From Candidatus Saccharimonadota bacterium (GTDB lineage Bacteria; Patescibacteriota; Microgenomatia; UBA1406; GWC2-37-13): a stretch of 32,000 nt of DNA. Positions 1 through 12,043 of the stretch are shown piece after piece; the stretch's first letter is position 1, and each line of letters starts with the position of its first letter. A program made the translations under genes and the position numbers. Where the stretch lies: contig MGBH01000001.1 in assembly GCA_001790095.1 (NCBI GenBank), positions 570,001 through 602,000 of the forward strand, written 5' to 3'. The notes below the pieces were generated by a model. That model did not search any database, was not told the DNA's origin, and was given only the letters and a program-made list of their open reading frames with translations.

Positions 1-1
1 T

Positions 2-172
2 ATCAAGAATGCAAAAGCAATAGTAGTTGCAACAGCACATAAGGAAATTAAAATGGGTCTTGAGAGTTTATTAAAAAAATCAAAAGTTAAGGTGGTCATT
101 GACGGACGAAACTGTTTAGACAAAGAAAAAATAAAAAAAATGGGGATAGTTTATAAAGGAATAGGAAGATAA
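2..172 (+). CDS. 3' end of a nucleotide-sugar dehydrogenase (UDP-glucose/GDP-mannose dehydrogenase family, WbpA/WecC-like); 5' part is outside the window
   Basis: Frame 2 is open from the window edge to TAA at 170-172. The translation IKNAKAIVVATAHKEIKMGLESLLKKSKVKVVIDGRNCLDKEKIKKMGIVYKGIGR shows the C-terminal pattern (vv.ATaH.ef ... vviDgRN) typical of this family. It lies directly upstream of WbpB/D/E homologues. Confidence 0.55.
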   Translation: MKNAKAIVVATAHKEIKMGLESLLKKSKVKVVIDGRNCLDKEKIKKMGIVYKGIGR

Positions 173-187
173 AAATAAAAGTTGTCC

Positions 188-260
188 GTCATTCCCGCGA
201 AAGCGGGAATCCAGACATAAATTACAAATTTTATAGATCCCGATTTTCATCGGGATGACA
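188..260 (+). repeat. Double-hairpin intergenic repeat, divergent copy A (H1a + 26-nt spacer + H2a)
   Basis: GTC-ATTCCCGC-gaaa-GCGGGAAT-C at 188-211 and G-ATCCCGAT-tttc-ATCGGGAT-GACA at 236-260. It has the same GTCAT...ATGACA ends and 8-bp stems as the copies at 1323, 1909 and 2253, but different stem sequences. Confidence 0.8.
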
Positions 261-263
261 TAA

Positions 264-1316
264 ATGAAAAAACTTGGCATCGGAGTCATAGGTTTAGGAA
301 GAATATTCCTTCGTCATTATGATGACAGTATCAAACAACTGCCAGAGATAGAACTCGTTGCAGTGTGTGATAATAAAAAAAGTGTACTTAATAAATACAG
401 GGATGAACTATCTAAAGATAAGACACCCCCACCATCATTTTATACCGACTATCAGCATCTTATTGATGATAAACGTGTTGATGTGGTCACGATAGCTACA
501 CCTAATGGCCTACATAATATCATGGGTATGGCTGTTGCAGTGGCTCAAAAACACTGCATTATGGAAAAACCTATTTCGCAAAATTTTAAAGATGCGCAAA
601 GACTGGTCAATGCTTTCAAAAAATCAAAAGGCAAACTTTTTCCTGTTCTACAGGTCAGATATAATCCAGCAGTACAAACACTACGAAGCGCCATAAAAAA
701 AGGGCTACTGGGTAAGATACTTACTGCTTCAGTTATCATCCGATGGACCCGCCCCCAGGAATATTTTGATGAAAGCGACTGGAAAGGTACTCTCAAGATG
801 GACGGAGGCACGCTTCTCACACAGGCGATCCATTATGTTGACATAATGCAGTATGTGCTTGGACCGGGTAAATCGGTATTTGGCAAACTGGACAGAGTAG
901 CGCATAAGATCGAAGCAGAAGATATCGCAAACGCCATCATAGATCTCAAAACAGGTACCAGGGTCAATCTTGAGTTCACCGTCTGCACTTATCCGCACAA
1001 TCTTGAATGTTCTCTTACCGTGCTTGGAGAAAAAGGAACGGTTAAAATAGGAGGAACCGCAATGAATAAATGTGAACTTTGGGAAGTGAAAGACACTCCA
1101 ATGCCATATATTCCCGAAGGGTTGATTCCAAACGTATATGCCGGAGGAATGTATGTGGGATCATGTCCCAACCATAAATCAATCTATGAAAATATGATCA
1201 ATAATCTTGTGTACAAAAAAGAGTCGTTTCTTAAAGCCGAAGATGCACTTGAGTCTTTAAGAATTATAGACGGAATCAAAAAATCAAGCGAGATGAAAAA
1301 AGAAGTAATATTATAA
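264..1316 (+). CDS. wbpB: Gfo/Idh/MocA-family NAD-dependent oxidoreductase, WbpB/WlbA-like (UDP-GlcNAcA 3-dehydrogenase)
   Basis: 350-aa ORF with an N-terminal Rossmann motif (MKKLGIGVIGLGRI). The central EKP motif (IMEKPIS) and the LQVRYNP...WKGT...DGG...HYVD segment resemble WbpB. It is in synteny with WbpD and WbpE homologues. Confidence 0.75.
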   Translation: MKKLGIGVIGLGRIFLRHYDDSIKQLPEIELVAVCDNKKSVLNKYRDELSKDKTPPPSFYTDYQHLIDDKRVDVVTIATPNGLHNIMGMAVAVAQKHCIMEKPISQNFKDAQRLVNAFKKSKGKLFPVLQVRYNPAVQTLRSAIKKGLLGKILTASVIIRWTRPQEYFDESDWKGTLKMDGGTLLTQAIHYVDIMQYVLGPGKSVFGKLDRVAHKIEAEDIANAIIDLKTGTRVNLEFTVCTYPHNLECSLTVLGEKGTVKIGGTAMNKCELWEVKDTPMPYIPEGLIPNVYAGGMYVGSCPNHKSIYENMINNLVYKKESFLKAEDALESLRIIDGIKKSSEMKKEVIL

Positions 1317-1322
1317 TACTAT

Positions 1323-1382
1323 GTCATCCTGAACTTGTTTCAGGATCAATATGGAAGATGCTGAAATAAATTCAGCATGACA
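1323..1382 (+). repeat. Double-hairpin intergenic repeat, empty copy B (H1 + 9-nt spacer + H2)
   Basis: H1 is GTC-ATCCTGAA-cttgt-TTCAGGAT-C at 1323-1347, the spacer is aatatggaa, and H2 is G-ATGCTGAA-ataaa-TTCAGCAT-GACA at 1357-1382. It fills the gap between the wbpB-like and wbpD-like genes. Confidence 0.9.
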
Positions 1383-1392
1383 ATATAAATAT

Positions 1393-1899
1393 ATGAAAAA
1401 ATATTATTGCCATGAATCATCGATAGTTGATAAAAACGTAACCATAGGTGACGAAACTAAGATCTGGCATTTCTCCCATGTATCAAGTGGCGCCAAAATC
1501 GGTAAATCCTGCTCCCTTGGTCAGAACGTATTTATTGGTAACAACGTTACAATAGGAGACAATGTAAAGATCCAAAACAATGTATCAGTCTATGAAGGAG
1601 TGACTCTTGAGAACGATGTATTCTGCGGACCATCGTGTGTATTTACCAATGTGAGACAACCCAGAAGTGAGTTCCCGGTACATAAAAAGTATGACAAAAC
1701 ACTCATTAAAAAAGGAGTGACTATAGGAGCCAATGTCACAATAGTTTGCGGAGTGACTATCGGCAAATACGCATTTATCGGAGCCGGCTCTGTCGTCACC
1801 AAAGATGTTCCCGATTATGCCTTAGTCTATGGCAACCCCGCAAGAGTAAAAGGAAAAGTGGATGAGAAAGGAAAGAAAATTAACACTATGTCATCCTGA
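1393..1899 (+). CDS. wbpD: Left-handed beta-helix (hexapeptide) N-acetyltransferase, WbpD/WlbB-like (UDP-GlcNAc3NA 3-N-acetyltransferase)
   Basis: 168-aa ORF. The segment [63 protein letters not shown]...[41 protein letters not shown] closely follows the WbpD/WlbB pattern as I recall it. The last 4 codons and the stop lie inside a repeat fragment. Confidence 0.85.
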
Positions 1900-1901
1900 A
1901 C
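1888..1901 (+). repeat. Orphan 5' arm of hairpin H1 (atgtcatcctgaac)
   Basis: This is a 14-nt direct repeat (1 mismatch) of 1907-1920, the start of the complete H1 that follows. It lacks the 3' arm and overlaps the wbpD-like stop codon at 1897-1899. Confidence 0.7.
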
Positions 1902-1908
1902 AATAAAT

Positions 1909-2246
1909 GTCATCCCGAACTTGTTTCGGGATCTATGTATGACTTATTTCGTATACATTTTGACTAACATAACGAATAGCACTCTCTATATTGGAGTTAC
2001 AAATAACATTCAAAGAAGGATTTTTGAACATAGAGAAGGAAAAGTTGACAGTTTTACAAGAAAATACAGATTACATAGACTTATATATTATGAAGAGTAT
2101 AAAAGCATTGAAGAAGCAATAGAGAGGGAAAAACAACTCAAGAACTGGCATCGTAAATGGAAGTTTAATTTAATTAAAAAAACAAATTCTAATCTTGATG
2201 ATTTATCAAGAAACTGGTAAGATGCTGAAATAAATTCAGCATGACA
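1909..2246 (+). mobile_element. Candidate compact mobile element: hairpin H1 - GIY-YIG ORF - hairpin H2 (338 bp)
   Basis: H1 (GTC-ATCCCGAA-cttgt-TTCGGGAT-C) is at 1909-1933. The ORF spans 1939-2220. H2 (G-ATGCTGAA-ataaa-TTCAGCAT-GACA) is at 2221-2246, starting on the base after the stop codon. The same H1 and H2 occur back to back without an ORF at 1323-1382 and 2253-2315. Confidence 0.55.
1939..2220 (+). CDS. GIY-YIG nuclease superfamily protein (small UPF0213/YhbQ-like, 93 aa)
   Basis: MTYFVYILTNITNSTLYIGVTNNIQRRIFEHREGK...FTRKYRLHRLIYYEEY.SIEEAIEREKQLKNWHRKWK contains the (G)IY-...-YIG, RR..EH and RE.Q.K motifs. I prefer the ATG at 1939 over the TTG at 1921 in the ORF track, because the TTG lies inside hairpin H1. 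Confidence 0.85.
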   Translation: MTYFVYILTNITNSTLYIGVTNNIQRRIFEHREGKVDSFTRKYRLHRLIYYEEYKSIEEAIEREKQLKNWHRKWKFNLIKKTNSNLDDLSRNW

Positions 2247-2252
2247 GTGAAC

Positions 2253-2315
2253 GTCATCCTGAACTTGTTTCAGGATCCTATAAAAAAAAGATGCTGAAAT
2301 AAATTCAGCATGACA
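2253..2315 (+). repeat. Double-hairpin intergenic repeat, empty copy D (H1 + 12-nt spacer + H2)
   Basis: H1 at 2253-2277 is identical to the copy at 1323-1347, and H2 at 2290-2315 is identical to those at 1357-1382 and 2221-2246. It follows the GIY-YIG element after 6 nt. Confidence 0.9.
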
Positions 2316-2323
2316 AACAAGAT

Positions 2324-3445
2324 ATGAAAATCCCGATTTTAGACCTAAAAGCCCAATATAAATCGATTCAAAAAGAGATCGATAACGCGATTAAAACGGT
2401 GATAGCCGAATCTGCTTTTATTGGCGGCCGCCATGTAGAGGAGCTTGAAAAAAATATTGCCGCGTATTGCGGTACCAAATATGCAGTCGCACTTAATTCA
2501 GGAACAGACGCACTGTATCTTGCCCTTTGGGCACTTGGCATAGGGGAGGGGGATGAAGTCATCACCTCACCTTTTTCTTTTTTTGCTACAGCTGAGGTGA
2601 TCGCCAAGGTAGGAGCAAAACCCGTGTTTGTAGATATTGATCCGACCGCTTTTAACATCGATCCTGATTTGATAAAAGCAAAGATCACAAAAAAAACAAA
2701 AGCAATTATACCCGTACATCTTTTTGGTCAAGCAGCCGAGATGGATAAAATAAACGCCCTCGCAAAAAAGCACAAGTTCTTTGTGATTGAAGATGCATGT
2801 CAAGCCATAGGCGCCACTTATAAGGGGAAAAAAACCGGAAACCTAGGTGATATAGGAGCCTTTAGTTTTTTTCCTTCAAAGAACCTGGGGGCATATGGCG
2901 ATGGGGGAATAGTGACGACAAACAATAAGGACCTTGCAGACAAAATCCGGCAGCTTCGCAACCACGGATCAAAAGTGAAGTATTATAACGATGAGATAGG
3001 AGTCAGCTCACGCCTGGACGGCATCCAAGCTGCCATCTTGAACGCAAAGCTTAAGCATTTGGACAAATGGAACAAAGCAAGAAACAACGTCGCCAAAACC
3101 TACGCAAAACTCATGAAAAATGTTTCAGGCATTATTCTTCCCAACAATGAAAATTGTAAATTGAAAATTGAACATTGCCAACATGTGTTTCACCAATACA
3201 CCATCCGCGTCAAAAACGGCAAACGTGATGAGTTAAAGAAATATCTTGCGGATAAAGGCATACAAACCATGATCTATTATCCGGTACCACTTCATCTTTT
3301 AAAAGCAATGGAGTATTTAGGGTACAAAAAGGGTTCTCTCCCCGAAGCAGAAAAAGCATGTAGCGAAGTATTAAGTCTGCCTATTTATCCGGAGCTAAAG
3401 AATAAAACAATTACTCAAATAGGTAAGATTTTATCAAACCTCTAG
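2324..3445 (+). CDS. wbpE: DegT/DnrJ/EryC1-family PLP-dependent aminotransferase, WbpE/WlbC-like
   Basis: 373-aa ORF with NSGTDALYLAL, GDEVITSPFSFFATAE, AIIPVHLFGQ, FFPSKNLGAYGDGG (PLP lysine context) and NSRLDGIQAAIL motifs typical of sugar aminotransferases. It is in synteny with WbpB/D homologues. Confidence 0.85.
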   Translation: MKIPILDLKAQYKSIQKEIDNAIKTVIAESAFIGGRHVEELEKNIAAYCGTKYAVALNSGTDALYLALWALGIGEGDEVITSPFSFFATAEVIAKVGAKPVFVDIDPTAFNIDPDLIKAKITKKTKAIIPVHLFGQAAEMDKINALAKKHKFFVIEDACQAIGATYKGKKTGNLGDIGAFSFFPSKNLGAYGDGGIVTTNNKDLADKIRQLRNHGSKVKYYNDEIGVSSRLDGIQAAILNAKLKHLDKWNKARNNVAKTYAKLMKNVSGIILPNNENCKLKIEHCQHVFHQYTIRVKNGKRDELKKYLADKGIQTMIYYPVPLHLLKAMEYLGYKKGSLPEAEKACSEVLSLPIYPELKNKTITQIGKILSNL

Positions 3446-4334: not shown

Positions 4335-5456
4335 TTAAGTGATATATGTTTTGTTATATTCTTTAATTAACTGATTGGCAATCCTATATGAATTATGCCA
4401 CCTCTTTACATATCTTCTGCCTCTTCTCCCAATTGACTCAAGCTTGTTTTTTTTAGTTGTTATATACTCTTTTAATACTAAATAAATTGTTTGCGGAGTA
4501 GCATTTATTACTGGCAACTCTTTTCTCATTTGTTCAGGAACAAACTTCAAATCTTCATTTCTGATATAAGCAATCACTGGCTTACCAAGAGCCATGAGTT
4601 CAACAGCAAGCCCTCCATACCACCCAGCAAGTAACTGATCTACTAGTATGTCTGATTTCATATATATTTTTTTGGCTTTTTCACGGGTCATGTTTTCGAC
4701 AAGTATGAAGTTAAACTTTAACCCTTCTCGCTTTAATTTATCAATAGCATCAACTATATATTTTGTTCCTTTTACAGACCTATCCGTAGGAGCATGCACT
4801 ATAGTAGTTTCATTATTTTTTTTATTCCTGTTCGTATCCAACGACTTCCAGGAATCAGGATTGATGTTTGTGTACGGAAGAAATTTTGCCCTTGCTGGTA
4901 GCAGATTAAGTAAATCTGGATTCAAAGAGTACAAAATATCAGCATGTTTTTCAAACTGCGCCACAATCCATCTTTTGTAGTCATCTGAACCCTTGAGGTA
5001 ATAATTCTTACTTACATCATTTGCAAATGTGATTTTGTAGTTTTTTTTACAATAATCTGCTTGCCTTATATCGTCGCCCTGAAATGTAACAATAATCTTT
5101 TTATTAAACAATTTTAGCAAAAAGAGATCCTTCAATGTAAACAGCTTAATATAAACTTTTCTTAATAGTTGAACATAATGATTAGAATTCCATTTTTGGG
5201 TCGATCTCCAATCAGGCATTAGAGTACTTCCAAAATTAAAATTGATGATATCATATTGGAGAAGTGCCCTAAACAACCAAAACCATCTTTGTATCTCAAA
5301 TAAAAAAATGTTTTGCGACTCAATGGTAAAGTCTGATTTAAATCCATACTTATTTTCAAACGATAAAGTATGACTTTCTAAGCCTTGTTCCTTTTCCGCA
5401 TTTGAAAGATGTGATGGATTTCCTGCAATATTGTACGGACAGTGTAAAACTTTCAT
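4335..5456 (-). CDS. GT-B fold glycosyltransferase (GT4-like), paralogue 3
   Basis: 373 aa. The C-terminal half (IVHAPTDRSVKGTKYIVDAI..LK.EG..F.F.LVE...ILVDQLLAGWYGGLAVELMALGKPVIAY) is shared with the ORFs at 7446-8699 and 10574-12043. It contains the GT4-type G..EAMA.G.PV motif. Its ATGA overlaps the upstream SDR gene. Confidence 0.65.
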   Translation of the reverse strand: MKVLHCPYNIAGNPSHLSNAEKEQGLESHTLSFENKYGFKSDFTIESQNIFLFEIQRWFWLFRALLQYDIINFNFGSTLMPDWRSTQKWNSNHYVQLLRKVYIKLFTLKDLFLLKLFNKKIIVTFQGDDIRQADYCKKNYKITFANDVSKNYYLKGSDDYKRWIVAQFEKHADILYSLNPDLLNLLPARAKFLPYTNINPDSWKSLDTNRNKKNNETTIVHAPTDRSVKGTKYIVDAIDKLKREGLKFNFILVENMTREKAKKIYMKSDILVDQLLAGWYGGLAVELMALGKPVIAYIRNEDLKFVPEQMRKELPVINATPQTIYLVLKEYITTKKNKLESIGRRGRRYVKRWHNSYRIANQLIKEYNKTYIT

Positions 5457-7445: not shown

Positions 7446-8699
7446 TTAAAAAGATTTTAATAGTGACGGCTTAATTCCTAGTTTGTTGTTTATTGAGGTA
7501 AATATTGAACCAATATATTCTACCGAGTGATGTTTTAAAACAAATTTCCTTGAATTTTCTCCAATTTTTTTTAATTTTTCTTTGTTTTTGATATTTTGCT
7601 TTATTACCTCTTTGATATTTGTAGGGTTTGCTTTAATGATCGGTATCTCATCTTTACTTATTAGACCCACATTAATATACAGATTCTCTAAGTTACTGTC
7701 TAAATAGCAAACAACAGGTTTTCCCAGCGCCATAGCTTCTATAGCAAACATCGCATACCACCCAATAACCAACTGATCAACTACTAAATCTGCATCTTCT
7801 ATTGCCCTTTTAACTACGTCATTACTCGCTTTTTCAATTAAGACAAGATCGATATCATAACCCTCGCGCTTCAGCTCATTTACAGCTTGGATTAAAAAAT
7901 CCGTTCCTTTTATTGCCCGATGATTGGGAGCATGTAGGATTTTAAAGCTTTTGTTTTTCTTATGTCTTTGAACAGGACGCCATCTATCAATGTCTATGGA
8001 AAAATGGCCCAGCATTAGTGTATCCCAATAGTATGTATAGTGAACCCAATCACAGCCGGATATAATATGATTTGAATGAACGGTCCATCTATCTATCTGT
8101 TCAGCAACTCTTCTTTTCATCCTTTTGCTATAGTCGGGGTAATTTACTCCCATAGCGTGCTTAAAAAGCAAATTAGGACATCTTGATAGGTCTTGAACAT
8201 CACCGCCATATGGAAAAACTACAATTTTTATATTTGCTAATTTATAAAAAATATGCTCATATCTACGAAGAATGATTGTAGGAAATAGGGGACCTCCGTT
8301 GAAATATATATATAATATCTTATATTTAAAAAGAGATCGCAAAAAAAGATGTATTGATCCTAAGAAAAGACTATCCATACCTAAATATCCTAGTAGTCTG
8401 TTAAATTTGCTAAATCTATCAACGATATAATCCCCTCGGTAATCAAACTCGCTTGTGATGAAATATACACTTATAACAAACGTCTCCACAGAGTATCCAT
8501 ATTTAAGAAGAGCCTTTTTATGATATATGTTATTTATAAGGGGTTCAGGACCCAAGCCCACATCAATTGGTTTCTTGAGAAGCCTTGCTATAAAACTAAT
8601 AGCAAGAAAAAATGGTATTAAAAAAATTTCAATAAGATGCCTCGCTATTTTCGCAGTCAAATCTTTTATATAGCAAATTATTCCTTTTATTAAACCCAT
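7446..8699 (-). CDS. Membrane-anchored GT-B glycosyltransferase, paralogue 1
   Basis: 417 aa with an N-terminal hydrophobic helix. It aligns by eye over roughly 390 aa with 10574-12043 (IDVGLGPEP/IDVGIGPLP, YFITSEFD/YFITSNFD, YFNGG, YGGDVQ, GCDWV.Y.Y.WDTL.L.HF, HAPNH..IKG, VVDQLV.GWY.MFA.EAMALGKPV). Confidence 0.65.
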   Translation of the reverse strand: MGLIKGIICYIKDLTAKIARHLIEIFLIPFFLAISFIARLLKKPIDVGLGPEPLINNIYHKKALLKYGYSVETFVISVYFITSEFDYRGDYIVDRFSKFNRLLGYLGMDSLFLGSIHLFLRSLFKYKILYIYFNGGPLFPTIILRRYEHIFYKLANIKIVVFPYGGDVQDLSRCPNLLFKHAMGVNYPDYSKRMKRRVAEQIDRWTVHSNHIISGCDWVHYTYYWDTLMLGHFSIDIDRWRPVQRHKKNKSFKILHAPNHRAIKGTDFLIQAVNELKREGYDIDLVLIEKASNDVVKRAIEDADLVVDQLVIGWYAMFAIEAMALGKPVVCYLDSNLENLYINVGLISKDEIPIIKANPTNIKEVIKQNIKNKEKLKKIGENSRKFVLKHHSVEYIGSIFTSINNKLGIKPSLLKSF

Positions 8700-10599: not shown

Positions 10600-12043
10600 A
10601 TTTTTTTTTAACTAGTTTTTTTCTTGGATATACACCAATTTTTTTATTAATTTGGTCAAAAACTTCACCCATTTTATTTAAGGAGTGGTATTTCATAACA
10701 AACGATCTTGATTTTTCTCCAATATCATTTAACCTTTGCTTTTTTCCAATCAATTGTTTAAGCGTTTCCTTAATATTGTCATAGTTACATTTAATAACCG
10801 GAAGGTTATTTTTCTTTATTATCCCTTCGAAGATAAATAAATTTTCAAGATTTTTATCAATATTACACAATACAGGCTTTCCCAAAGCCATCGCCTCAAC
10901 AGCAAACATTCCATACCAACCCACAACCAACTGATCAACGACGACGTCCACGTTTGCCATTAATTTTTTTATATTTAAATGTTTCATCTTTTGTTTCATA
11001 ATCAATTCTATTTTATAACCCTCTGATTTAAGTTCTTCTACCGCATTAATTATGAATCTTGATCCCTTTATATTAACATGGTTCGGTGCGTGAAAGACAA
11101 CCATATTATGGTTCTTTTTTTTGAAATTTGGAGGCTTCCATTCATGGGTGTCAACAGTAAAGTGAGCTAATACAAGAGTATCCCAGTGATACATATATTT
11201 GACCCAGTCACAACCCCCCAGAAGATGATCACCCGAAGTGGTCCATAAATCTATTCGTTTCTCAATACCATTTCTCAACATCCTAAACCCAGGGTAGTCT
11301 TTTGACATTGTTGTCTTATAAAGTAAGTTATCGCAATGACTCATGTTTTGAACATCACCTCCATAAGCGGTTATTATTGTCTTTACACCAGCTAAACGAT
11401 AAAAATGAGGTTCCAATCTCCAAAGTATTCTTGTCCTCCATAAAGCTCCACCATTAAAATAAAAATATAGTGATTTATATCGAAAAATAGTAAAAACAAA
11501 TAAAAAAATAGGGAGAAGACTATGATGTAAAAAAGGATATTTTTTGAAAAATAAATCAGCTCTGATGTCAAAGTTTGATGTTATAAAATATACTTGGTCA
11601 ACATATGTTTCTACTTTATAACCATATAATTCCATTGCTTTTTTTTGATACTGATGACTTACAATAGGTAAAGGACCTATTCCAACATCTATTTTTCTTT
11701 CACTTTTCTGTGATATGTAACATGCAACAATCAAGAAGGGGATGCTAATGAATTCTACTAAATAGGAATTGAGAAAAAAGAAAATAAAGCTTTTGTATGA
11801 TTTGTTTATCTGAAAAATAATTTTGAAAAATAACAAAAAAACAATCAAAATTCGTCTAAAAATAAAATATAAAGATTTGGTTTCCTTGTAATAAAATAGC
11901 TTCCTTAGCTTTTTCTTTTTCCCCCTTAGTAATCCCCTTATAATTGACTGAATAAAAACTACCAAGCGTCCTGTGTAGACCATCAACTCATCGATGATGA
12001 AAGACGCAACTGTAAACAAAAAAAAATACACTATATACCGCAT
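10574..12043 (-). CDS. Polytopic-anchored GT-B glycosyltransferase, paralogue 2
   Basis: 489 aa. It has about 110 extra N-terminal residues with 3-4 hydrophobic segments. The rest is co-linear with 7446-8699 and ends in a lysine-rich tail. Confidence 0.65.
   Translation of the reverse strand: MRYIVYFFLFTVASFIIDELMVYTGRLVVFIQSIIRGLLRGKKKKLRKLFYYKETKSLYFIFRRILIVFLLFFKIIFQINKSYKSFIFFFLNSYLVEFISIPFLIVACYISQKSERKIDVGIGPLPIVSHQYQKKAMELYGYKVETYVDQVYFITSNFDIRADLFFKKYPFLHHSLLPIFLFVFTIFRYKSLYFYFNGGALWRTRILWRLEPHFYRLAGVKTIITAYGGDVQNMSHCDNLLYKTTMSKDYPGFRMLRNGIEKRIDLWTTSGDHLLGGCDWVKYMYHWDTLVLAHFTVDTHEWKPPNFKKKNHNMVVFHAPNHVNIKGSRFIINAVEELKSEGYKIELIMKQKMKHLNIKKLMANVDVVVDQLVVGWYGMFAVEAMALGKPVLCNIDKNLENLFIFEGIIKKNNLPVIKCNYDNIKETLKQLIGKKQRLNDIGEKSRSFVMKYHSLNKMGEVFDQINKKIGVYPRKKLVKKKYEKYKKKL

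Follow-up and report, generated by a model that had tools for sequence, protein, structure and literature searches.

Ssn proteins are site-specific nucleases of single-stranded DNA (ssDNA) with no action on double-stranded DNA (dsDNA) or RNA (PMC11893778). The characterised member, SsnA of Neisseria meningitidis, is a 94-amino acid protein made up of a single GIY-YIG domain (CDD cd10448). Its binding to NTS, a hairpin repeat (CGTCATTCCCGCGMAVGCGGGAATCYRG), is restricted to the single-stranded form, and its cut falls a few nucleotides upstream (5') of the hairpin (PMC11893778). The GTC before the palindrome has the largest effect on cutting, the C after it the largest effect on binding, and mutations of Y6, Y17 and E64 abolish cleavage (PMC11893778). 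Ssn-related hairpin motifs (SRM) are found near 71% of Ssn homologues and on both sides in 42%, and the family has been linked to the transformation phenotype of Neisseria (PMC11893778). Chenal et al. (2025, PMC11893778) likened NTS-ssnA-NTS to an insertion sequence, compared it with IS200/IS605 and REP/BIME, and raised the hypothesis of its mobility. A second system of interest is that of the REPINs, inverted doublets of REP sequences mobilised by single-copy RAYT transposases (PMC3116915, PMC3337134, PMC5581495). Here we describe a small GIY-YIG gene, which we call ssn, and the hairpins that surround it in a 32,000-nucleotide stretch of DNA (the window; positions 570,001–602,000 of contig MGBH01000001.1, assembly GCA_001790095.1) from a bacterium of the candidate phyla radiation (CPR). 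The locus is likely to consist of a Ssn-family nuclease gene with its cognate SRM/NTS-like hairpins, in a divergent AT-rich form and in a REPIN/RAYT-like arrangement.

The gene occupies positions 1939–2220 on the plus strand. An initial annotation of this DNA had already recognised a 93-codon GIY-YIG open reading frame (ORF) between two hairpins, and its product indeed matches the Pfam GIY-YIG family (PF01541, E = 3.7e-19, residues 3–77), with no other non-overlapping domain in its 93 amino acids. As the SsnA reference we used the orthologue of N. gonorrhoeae, a 94-amino acid ORF in locus L131 which is the sole match in that chromosome and lies amid NTS copies. The two proteins are 46% identical in a gapless alignment of 89 amino acids covering 96% of the query (E = 4e-19 by tblastn against the database, 4e-29 by pairwise BLASTP), which places the window protein within the limits set by Chenal et al. 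(E < 1e-10 and at least 75% query coverage against SsnA), here against the gonococcal orthologue. It also has the size of a Ssn protein, these being single GIY-YIG domains of fewer than 150 amino acids (93 here, 94 in SsnA), and 21 aligned homologues all have Y6, Y17 and E64. Other groups are further away. The UPF0213 structures 1ZG2 and 1YWL are only distantly similar (E = 9e-7 and 5e-4), NCBIfam gave only a sub-threshold match to the intron-endonuclease model TIGR01453 (22.6 bits, cut-off 56.05), and the PADLOC defence models only a sub-threshold match to UzuA (E = 6e-4). Based upon the NTS match in the window described below, the 46% identity, the catalytic residues, and the greater distance to UPF0213 and the intron endonucleases, we assign the product to the Ssn family by homology; it is thus a predicted site-specific ssDNA nuclease of a family that has been characterised (PMC11893778), where the initial annotation had known of no described mobility mechanism. 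GIY-YIG matches in phage records are only distant (33–39% identity) and there is therefore no sign of the cassette being phage-borne. The database version of the protein is 99 amino acids long and begins at a TTG within the upstream hairpin, while the alignment of homologues favours the ATG at 1939. In the plasmid collection, two 2.17-Mb N. gonorrhoeae chromosomes (NZ_CP119140.1 and NZ_CP119142.1) are misfiled as plasmids.

Positions 1–3445 of the window carry four co-oriented genes of a UDP-sugar pathway, with hairpins of one design at every junction. These genes, for which we keep the labels of the initial annotation, are wbpA (UDP-sugar dehydrogenase, 3' end only, at the start of the region), wbpB (264–1316, GFO/IDH/MocA oxidoreductase), wbpD (1393–1899, hexapeptide acetyltransferase) and wbpE (2324–3445, DegT-type aminotransferase). 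The hairpin consists of GTC, an 8-bp stem beginning with AT, a loop of 4–5 nucleotides, the complementary arm and a C. There are eight perfect hairpins in the window, four per strand, ordered plus then minus so as to make four convergent pairs; no further hairpin occurs outside 188–2315 in the other ~38 kb examined (the rest of the window and 8 kb upstream). H1 (GTCATCCTGAACTTGTTTCAGGATC) matches at 1323–1347 and 2253–2277, and H2 (GATGCTGAAATAAATTCAGCATGACA) at 1357–1382, 2221–2246 and 2290–2315, with none expected by chance in 100 shuffles. H1' at 1909–1933 is H1 with two compensatory changes (CCTGAA/TTCAGG to CCCGAA/TTCGGG). These copies, with spacers of 9 and 12 nucleotides in the two ORF-less units, lie where the initial annotation had placed them. 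It had treated H1 and H2 as two modules; read on the minus strand, H2 is GTCATGCTGAATTTATTTCAGCATC, which has the same design as H1, and each unit is a convergent inverted pair.

The first pair, between wbpA and wbpB, has stems different from those of H1/H2. Its left half (187–214, plus strand; hairpin proper 188–211; CGTCATTCCCGCGAAAGCGGGAATCCAG) is an exact NTS consensus with a folding energy of -9.8 kcal/mol, and nothing else in the window matches the published degenerate SRM pattern; the right half of the pair (236–259, minus strand; GTCATCCCGATGAAAATCGGGATC in minus-strand reading) has a perfect 8-bp stem and the GTC...C frame (-7.6 kcal/mol). The ORF-less wbpB-wbpD pair is made up of H1 (1323–1347, plus) and, after the 9-nucleotide spacer, H2 (1357–1381, minus). 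The third pair (1909–1933, plus, and 2221–2245, minus) encloses ssn: as the initial annotation had it, 5 nucleotides separate the upstream hairpin from the ATG, the TAA is immediately followed by H2, and a further 6 nucleotides lead to the next H1. That last H1 belongs to an extra ORF-less unit of 69 nucleotides (2247–2315), composed of gtgaac, H1 (2253–2277, plus), a 12-nucleotide spacer and H2 (2290–2314, minus). Finally, an orphan 5' half-hairpin, GTCATCCTGAAC (1890–1901), followed by AATAAAT, makes up a 19-nucleotide segment (1890–1908, plus strand) directly 5' of H1'. The orphan arm was thus rightly noticed before, although the gap to the GTC of the hairpin is 7 nucleotides and not 5. The TGA of this arm (1897–1899) is the stop codon of the acetyltransferase gene wbpD, the last residues of which (..NTMSS, compared with ..KIL, ..NVI or ..IRN in relatives) therefore derive from inserted DNA.

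Folded as ssDNA, the window hairpins have energies of -6.1 to -9.8 kcal/mol each (z = -3.3 to -5.5). Since H2 is the H1 motif on the opposite strand, the entire 70-nucleotide ORF-less unit between wbpB and wbpD also folds into one long imperfect hairpin (-15.1 kcal/mol, z = -5.3). The stems covary among hairpins (CCTGAA, CCCGAA, GCTGAA, TCCCGCG and others), and the GTC and 3' C which are critical for cleavage and binding (PMC11893778) are kept in all eight. By the published measure of an SRM within 500 bp on both sides of the gene, the nearest pattern match lies 1.7 kb upstream of ssn; the hairpins adjacent to the gene share the GTC-AT-stem-loop-stem-AT-C layout, with stem bases outside the pattern. 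Hairpins of this kind can be translated into spurious protein, as in an ORF at 116–289 of the window (minus strand, ...VIPMKIGIY...DSRFRGNDG) and at the ends of homologues P0013, P0036, P0037, P0050 and P0109 (DPETSSG, DAETSSA, VIPNLFRDH).

The same layout was found among relatives of the gene. Eighty metagenomic loci with ssn relatives (49–64% identical) were inspected, only perfect-stem hairpins being called. The nearest upstream hairpin was (+) in 39 and (-) in 7 of 67 usable loci, mostly ending 6–40 nucleotides ahead of the start codon; the nearest downstream hairpin was (-) in 45 and (+) in 6 of 69, mostly starting within 30 nucleotides of the stop codon. Where both sides could be read, (+)gene(-) accounted for 26 of 56 loci and (-)gene(+) for two; the opposite orientation is that of the gonococcal gene and of one Lutibacter locus (L080). 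The GTC...C frame is constant across loci and the stems vary widely. More than 600 nucleotides away from ssn genes the hairpin density is 0.038 per kb, and in shuffled sequence it is zero. The initial annotation had staked its reading on hairpin flanks at other GIY-YIG paralogues of the genome and on hairpin enrichment over shuffled controls, and among these metagenomic relatives both are borne out. In this protein clade the placement of the gene between hairpins is conserved.

A comparison of wbp operons reveals both empty and occupied junctions. In the sister species (L213; Ssn 76–79% identical, neighbouring proteins 81–85%) ssn likewise lies between wbpD and wbpE, enclosed by the same hairpins, but without the 19-nucleotide orphan segment (1890–1908) and the 69-nucleotide extra unit (2247–2315), and the wbpA-wbpB junction of L213 holds an H1/H2-type pair in place of the NTS-type pair of the window. 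L218/L219 and the P0138 contig (WbpE 77–79% identical) have a compact operon with junctions of 3, 12 and -4 nucleotides, no hairpins and no ssn. L217 (WbpE 76% identical) has a solo NTS-type hairpin at wbpD-wbpE, and in L220 (WbpE 79% identical) the wbpD-wbpE junction is occupied by another small gene (PF05635), with a solo hairpin between wbpB and wbpD. The wbpA-B-D-E operon was ancestrally compact, as the empty junctions of its relatives show, and both the ssn cassette and the ORF-less pairs were inserted into it; hairpin units have been gained, lost or replaced there since. The presence/absence differences between related wbp loci that the initial annotation proposed to look for do exist. 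Ten other assemblies of the locus (L001–L010) show no insertion polymorphism, all differences being runs of N.

Genes of the 23S_rRNA_IVP family (PF05635; 114–120 amino acids) were seen in these junctions both in L217 (3040–3402, wbpB-wbpD) and in L220 (3581–3925, wbpD-wbpE), and small selfish-looking genes seem to have landed repeatedly in the wbp operon junctions. NTS-type solo hairpins at different junctions in three genomes (window 188–232; L217 3957–4000; L220 3007–3050) have in common a 3' tail, CCAGGCTATAAT(T/A)(A/T)CAAT, which in the window is degenerate; this gives the NTS-type element a length of about 45 nucleotides, and it carries a TATAAT box pointing toward the downstream gene. 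A duplication of about 10 nucleotides of the old wbpD/wbpE overlap (AAAATAC-TATG) flanking the cassette was also considered; it is a resemblance too degenerate to call.

The divergence between the window and L213 gives a measure of how long the gene has been in place. In the neighbouring genes synonymous sites are saturated (pS 0.75–0.80). For ssn itself pS is 0.64 and pN 0.16 (dN/dS ~0.12), and the gene is under purifying selection. H1' is identical at 25 of 25 positions and the hairpin downstream of ssn differs in its loop only; being almost unchanged while neutral sites saturate, the hairpins are therefore either under selection or being homogenised. Exact-protein look-ups with this Ssn and two homologues seen on many contigs returned one genomic context each. 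The ssn gene has been held at one junction as a single-copy gene since before the split of the two Roizmanbacteria lineages.

ORF-less units are by no means confined to this operon. One genome per species was scanned with the H1/H2 25-mer containing four degenerate positions, and at least 120 stretches matched. The matches listed include sphingomonads, Pedobacter and other Bacteroidota, Treponema, Ignavibacterium, Melainabacteria, many CPR lineages and one metagenome-assembled genome (MAG) of the Nanoarchaeota; among them a Ssn-like ORF lies within 8 kb in only six of 120 stretches. The hairpins of these 120 listed stretches fall into 60 isolated (+)(-) pairs, nine isolated (-)(+) pairs, 104 singletons and a few alternating arrays; among clusters the (+)(-) pair is the most frequent type, its spacers being mostly 6–60 nucleotides. 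The ORF-less (+)(-) pair is thus a real and widespread unit, strongly reminiscent of REPINs. An identical 25-nucleotide hairpin was observed in the Nanoarchaeota MAG (L036), in many bacterial phyla, CPR loci L011, L027, L041, L053 and L060 included, and on conjugative sphingomonad plasmids (H46–H52); its sharing across phyla suggests either that it spread horizontally or that the recognition site is very strongly constrained. No target-site duplication was found around 100 (+)(-) units, the mean best direct match being 1.87 as against 1.74 ± 0.13 for shuffled pairings, and a slight extension of the inverted-repeat ends in these units reflects only a pyrimidine preference before GTC. Their spacers are 6–70 nucleotides long and, outside duplicated units, unrelated among the 25 units displayed. 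The initial annotation had read the 9-nucleotide spacer of the wbpB-wbpD unit as the remnant of an internal deletion of the ORF. We reject this because spacers are unrelated to the ORF ends and, duplicated units aside, to one another, as seen in the other empty copy and the sister species (ctataaaaaaaa, tgttattaattaa, tattattaattaa).

Both length differences between the window and L213 lie against an existing hairpin on its GTC side. The orphan segment is directly 5' of H1' on the top strand, and the extra unit directly follows the ...ATGACA of H2, a position that on the bottom strand is 5' of this hairpin. By analogy with SsnA, these positions are those at which Ssn would be expected to nick. 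Orphan half-hairpins, defined as copies (at least 10 of 12 bases) of a hairpin's own first 12 nucleotides located 14–40 nucleotides away from it, recur upstream in 18 cases and downstream in two among 520 intact hairpins in the fetched loci, with a mode of 19–22 nucleotides from start to start. The upstream cases are those of the window (1890–1901), L221 (~2463–2483), L227 (~2367–2385), L131 (~1370, next to the gonococcal gene) and 14 other loci.

The reading that we favour, a resident Ssn-family nuclease gene with its cognate hairpins in a REPIN/RAYT-like arrangement, can be put into mechanistic terms with characterised SsnA as a guide. When DNA becomes single-stranded, during replication, repair or uptake from outside, the hairpin would fold; Ssn would bind the stem and the C after it, and nick that strand a few nucleotides 5' of the GTC. 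For a convergent pair the geometry suggests two cuts just outside the unit, on opposite strands. Ssn would behave in a RAYT-like manner, as a resident nuclease retained by the host, with hairpin sites that are maintained and may occasionally multiply beside cut sites, the multiplication of doublets probably proceeding via repair at Ssn nicks. In the cell it probably serves to process ssDNA that is marked by hairpins, as happens in Neisseria transformation. Several points weigh against this reading. H1/H2 fail to match the published SRM search pattern, and since SsnA recognition is sequence-specific a single enzyme may not serve all four stem types in the window. The convergent rule is clade-specific, because Neisseria and some loci (L080) have (-)gene(+). 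Copies and paralogues of ssn and of the hairpins were counted in the window and 8 kb upstream, out of a 1.2-Mb genome. The nuclease activity and hairpin recognition proposed here rest on homology, and a role in DNA uptake would be, in this CPR organism, an extrapolation from Neisseria.

A further step would be to regard the system as a REPIN-RAYT-like replicator, in which the single-copy ssn mobilises ORF-less pairs in trans and seeds units at cut sites 5' of hairpins, orphan halves being the scars. We hold this to be possible but doubtful; if true, it would constitute a mechanistically new class of prokaryotic mobile DNA extending across CPR, Bacteroidota, sphingomonads, spirochaetes and others. 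The initial annotation had proposed a candidate pair of autonomous and non-autonomous mobile elements. Spelled out, H1-ssn-H2 would be an autonomous transposable element with its GIY-YIG protein as the transposase, and the ORF-less units would be its non-autonomous derivatives, of the kind of miniature inverted-repeat transposable elements, mobilised in trans. There is something to be said for it. The convergent layout resembling terminal inverted repeats is conserved, orthologous operons present empty and occupied sites, the same 25-nucleotide hairpin is found in distant phyla and on the conjugative sphingomonad plasmids, many homologues reside on very short contigs as repeats do, and the idea was also raised in PMC11893778; among the matches listed, ORF-less (+)(-) pairs outnumber (-)(+) pairs 60 to 9 and a ssn gene is within 8 kb in only six of the 120. 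We nevertheless think it unlikely, as the copy bearing the ORF was single in every case checked (one context per exact protein), ssn has kept its place across a deep split, occupying the wbpD-wbpE junction in L213 too, and is under purifying selection, the 100 units are without target-site duplications, and the spacers of the empty units bear no relation to the ends of the ORF. Furthermore, DNA hydrolysis by GIY-YIG enzymes involves no covalent intermediate, Ssn is not known to join strands, and hairpins are rare far from ssn genes (0.038 per kb in sampled flanks).

Two other explanations dispense with recognition of the hairpins by the enzyme, and both are very improbable. Were the ORF a free-standing GIY-YIG homing endonuclease which cuts dsDNA at wbpD-wbpE and spreads by gene conversion, its GIY-YIG domain, its insertion at a gene junction that is intact in relatives, and its weak similarity to TIGR01453, a model of group I intron endonucleases, would be accounted for, the hairpins being incidental. 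Yet the TIGR01453 match is far below the cut-off, the protein is only 93 amino acids long with no DNA-binding domain, its relatives occur in unrelated contexts (trmD, Ham1-serS) with hairpins always present, and characterised members of the family do not cut dsDNA (PMC11893778). The hairpins could alternatively act in RNA, as intra-operon terminators, attenuators or mRNA-stabilising stem-loops, with the nuclease gene as a passenger. All of them do lie in intergenic junctions of one co-oriented operon, and two minus-strand hairpins score as terminator-like; but such hits are on the non-coding strand and number 4, as against 2.4 ± 1.6 in shuffles. Promoter and terminator scans around the units gave hits no more frequent than in shuffles, and Rfam and tRNA scans of the window gave no match. 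SsnA is inactive on RNA (PMC11893778), and the GTC/C frame and strict association with ssn across phyla are explained by Ssn recognition instead.

The enzyme family and its association with hairpins have been published, and the window is in itself not a discovery. What it adds is an extension of the Ssn system to an ultra-small CPR genome, and a hairpin variant which is missed by the published SRM pattern, so that the system is undercounted in any census that relies on it. In the wbp operon there is a natural series, from empty junction through solo hairpin and ssn cassette to the cassette with an extra doublet and orphan arm, and this bears on a question left by PMC11893778, that of NTS-ssnA-NTS being, or once having been, a mobile element. 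The lineage-specific length differences at the nick sites expected for Ssn suggest a testable idea of how hairpins multiply.

Elsewhere in the window, a 79-nucleotide segment is present on the minus strand in three copies, 71% identical and about 3.1 kb apart (4576–4654, 7714–7792 and 10872–10950). These probably mark three paralogous genes of a glycan cluster, the first segment lying inside a 373-amino acid ORF (4335–5456).

Among known systems, the GIY-YIG homing endonucleases (I-TevI and the Seg proteins) have the same catalytic fold and likewise insert into otherwise intact gene junctions. They differ in that ssn is without a C-terminal DNA-binding domain or an intron, and in that its expected substrate is ssDNA. 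The neisserial dRS3/NIMEs resemble the present units in their palindrome core, ATTCCC-N8-GGGAAT, found at 188–211, and in forming arrays of alternating orientation in intergenic DNA, but NIMEs are long mosaic arrays, whereas the units in the window are isolated pairs between genes of one operon. With IS200/IS605 are shared structured subterminal hairpins, their recognition as ssDNA and cleavage a short distance away (both predicted for the present system), and the lack of target-site duplications. In contrast to those elements, the cassette encodes neither TnpA (Y1 HUH) nor TnpB, the GIY-YIG gene being the sole ORF between the window hairpins; the end hairpins are inverted copies of one motif, where the left and right ends of IS200/IS605 are distinct; and the unit bearing the ORF is not multi-copy, each exact-protein look-up returning one context.

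The parallel with REP/RAYT and IS200/IS605 that was drawn in the initial annotation stands insofar as the layout is conserved and ORF-less pairs are common, but it was already in print (PMC11893778). Several features of REPIN-RAYT systems (PMC3116915, PMC3337134, PMC5581495) are present here: inverted doublets of a short palindromic repeat able to fold as one long hairpin, and a single-copy, vertically inherited, hairpin-flanked nuclease gene, with many ORF-less doublets and singlets elsewhere. The enzymes are not homologous, RAYT being an HUH Y1 transposase with a covalent DNA intermediate, and Ssn a hydrolytic GIY-YIG protein. The closest system remains SsnA/NTS. It differs in its host, which here is a CPR bacterium (Ca. 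Roizmanbacteria, from a groundwater MAG) with a genome of 1.2 Mb; in the flanking stems, which in the window (ATCCTGAA, ATCCCGAA, ATGCTGAA) are outside the published SRM search pattern; in orientation, the window flanks being convergent, (+)gene(-), and those of the gonococcal gene (-)gene(+); and in copy number, the hairpins being few and local in the window as opposed to hundreds of copies in Neisseria. The activity of the window protein is, moreover, a predicted one. Common to both are a single-domain GIY-YIG protein of about 94 amino acids, 46% identical and with the same catalytic residues; a hairpin with GTC 5' and C 3' of the stem, one of those in the window being an exact NTS; and a gene flanked by hairpins on both sides, with hairpins clustering near surface-polysaccharide genes.

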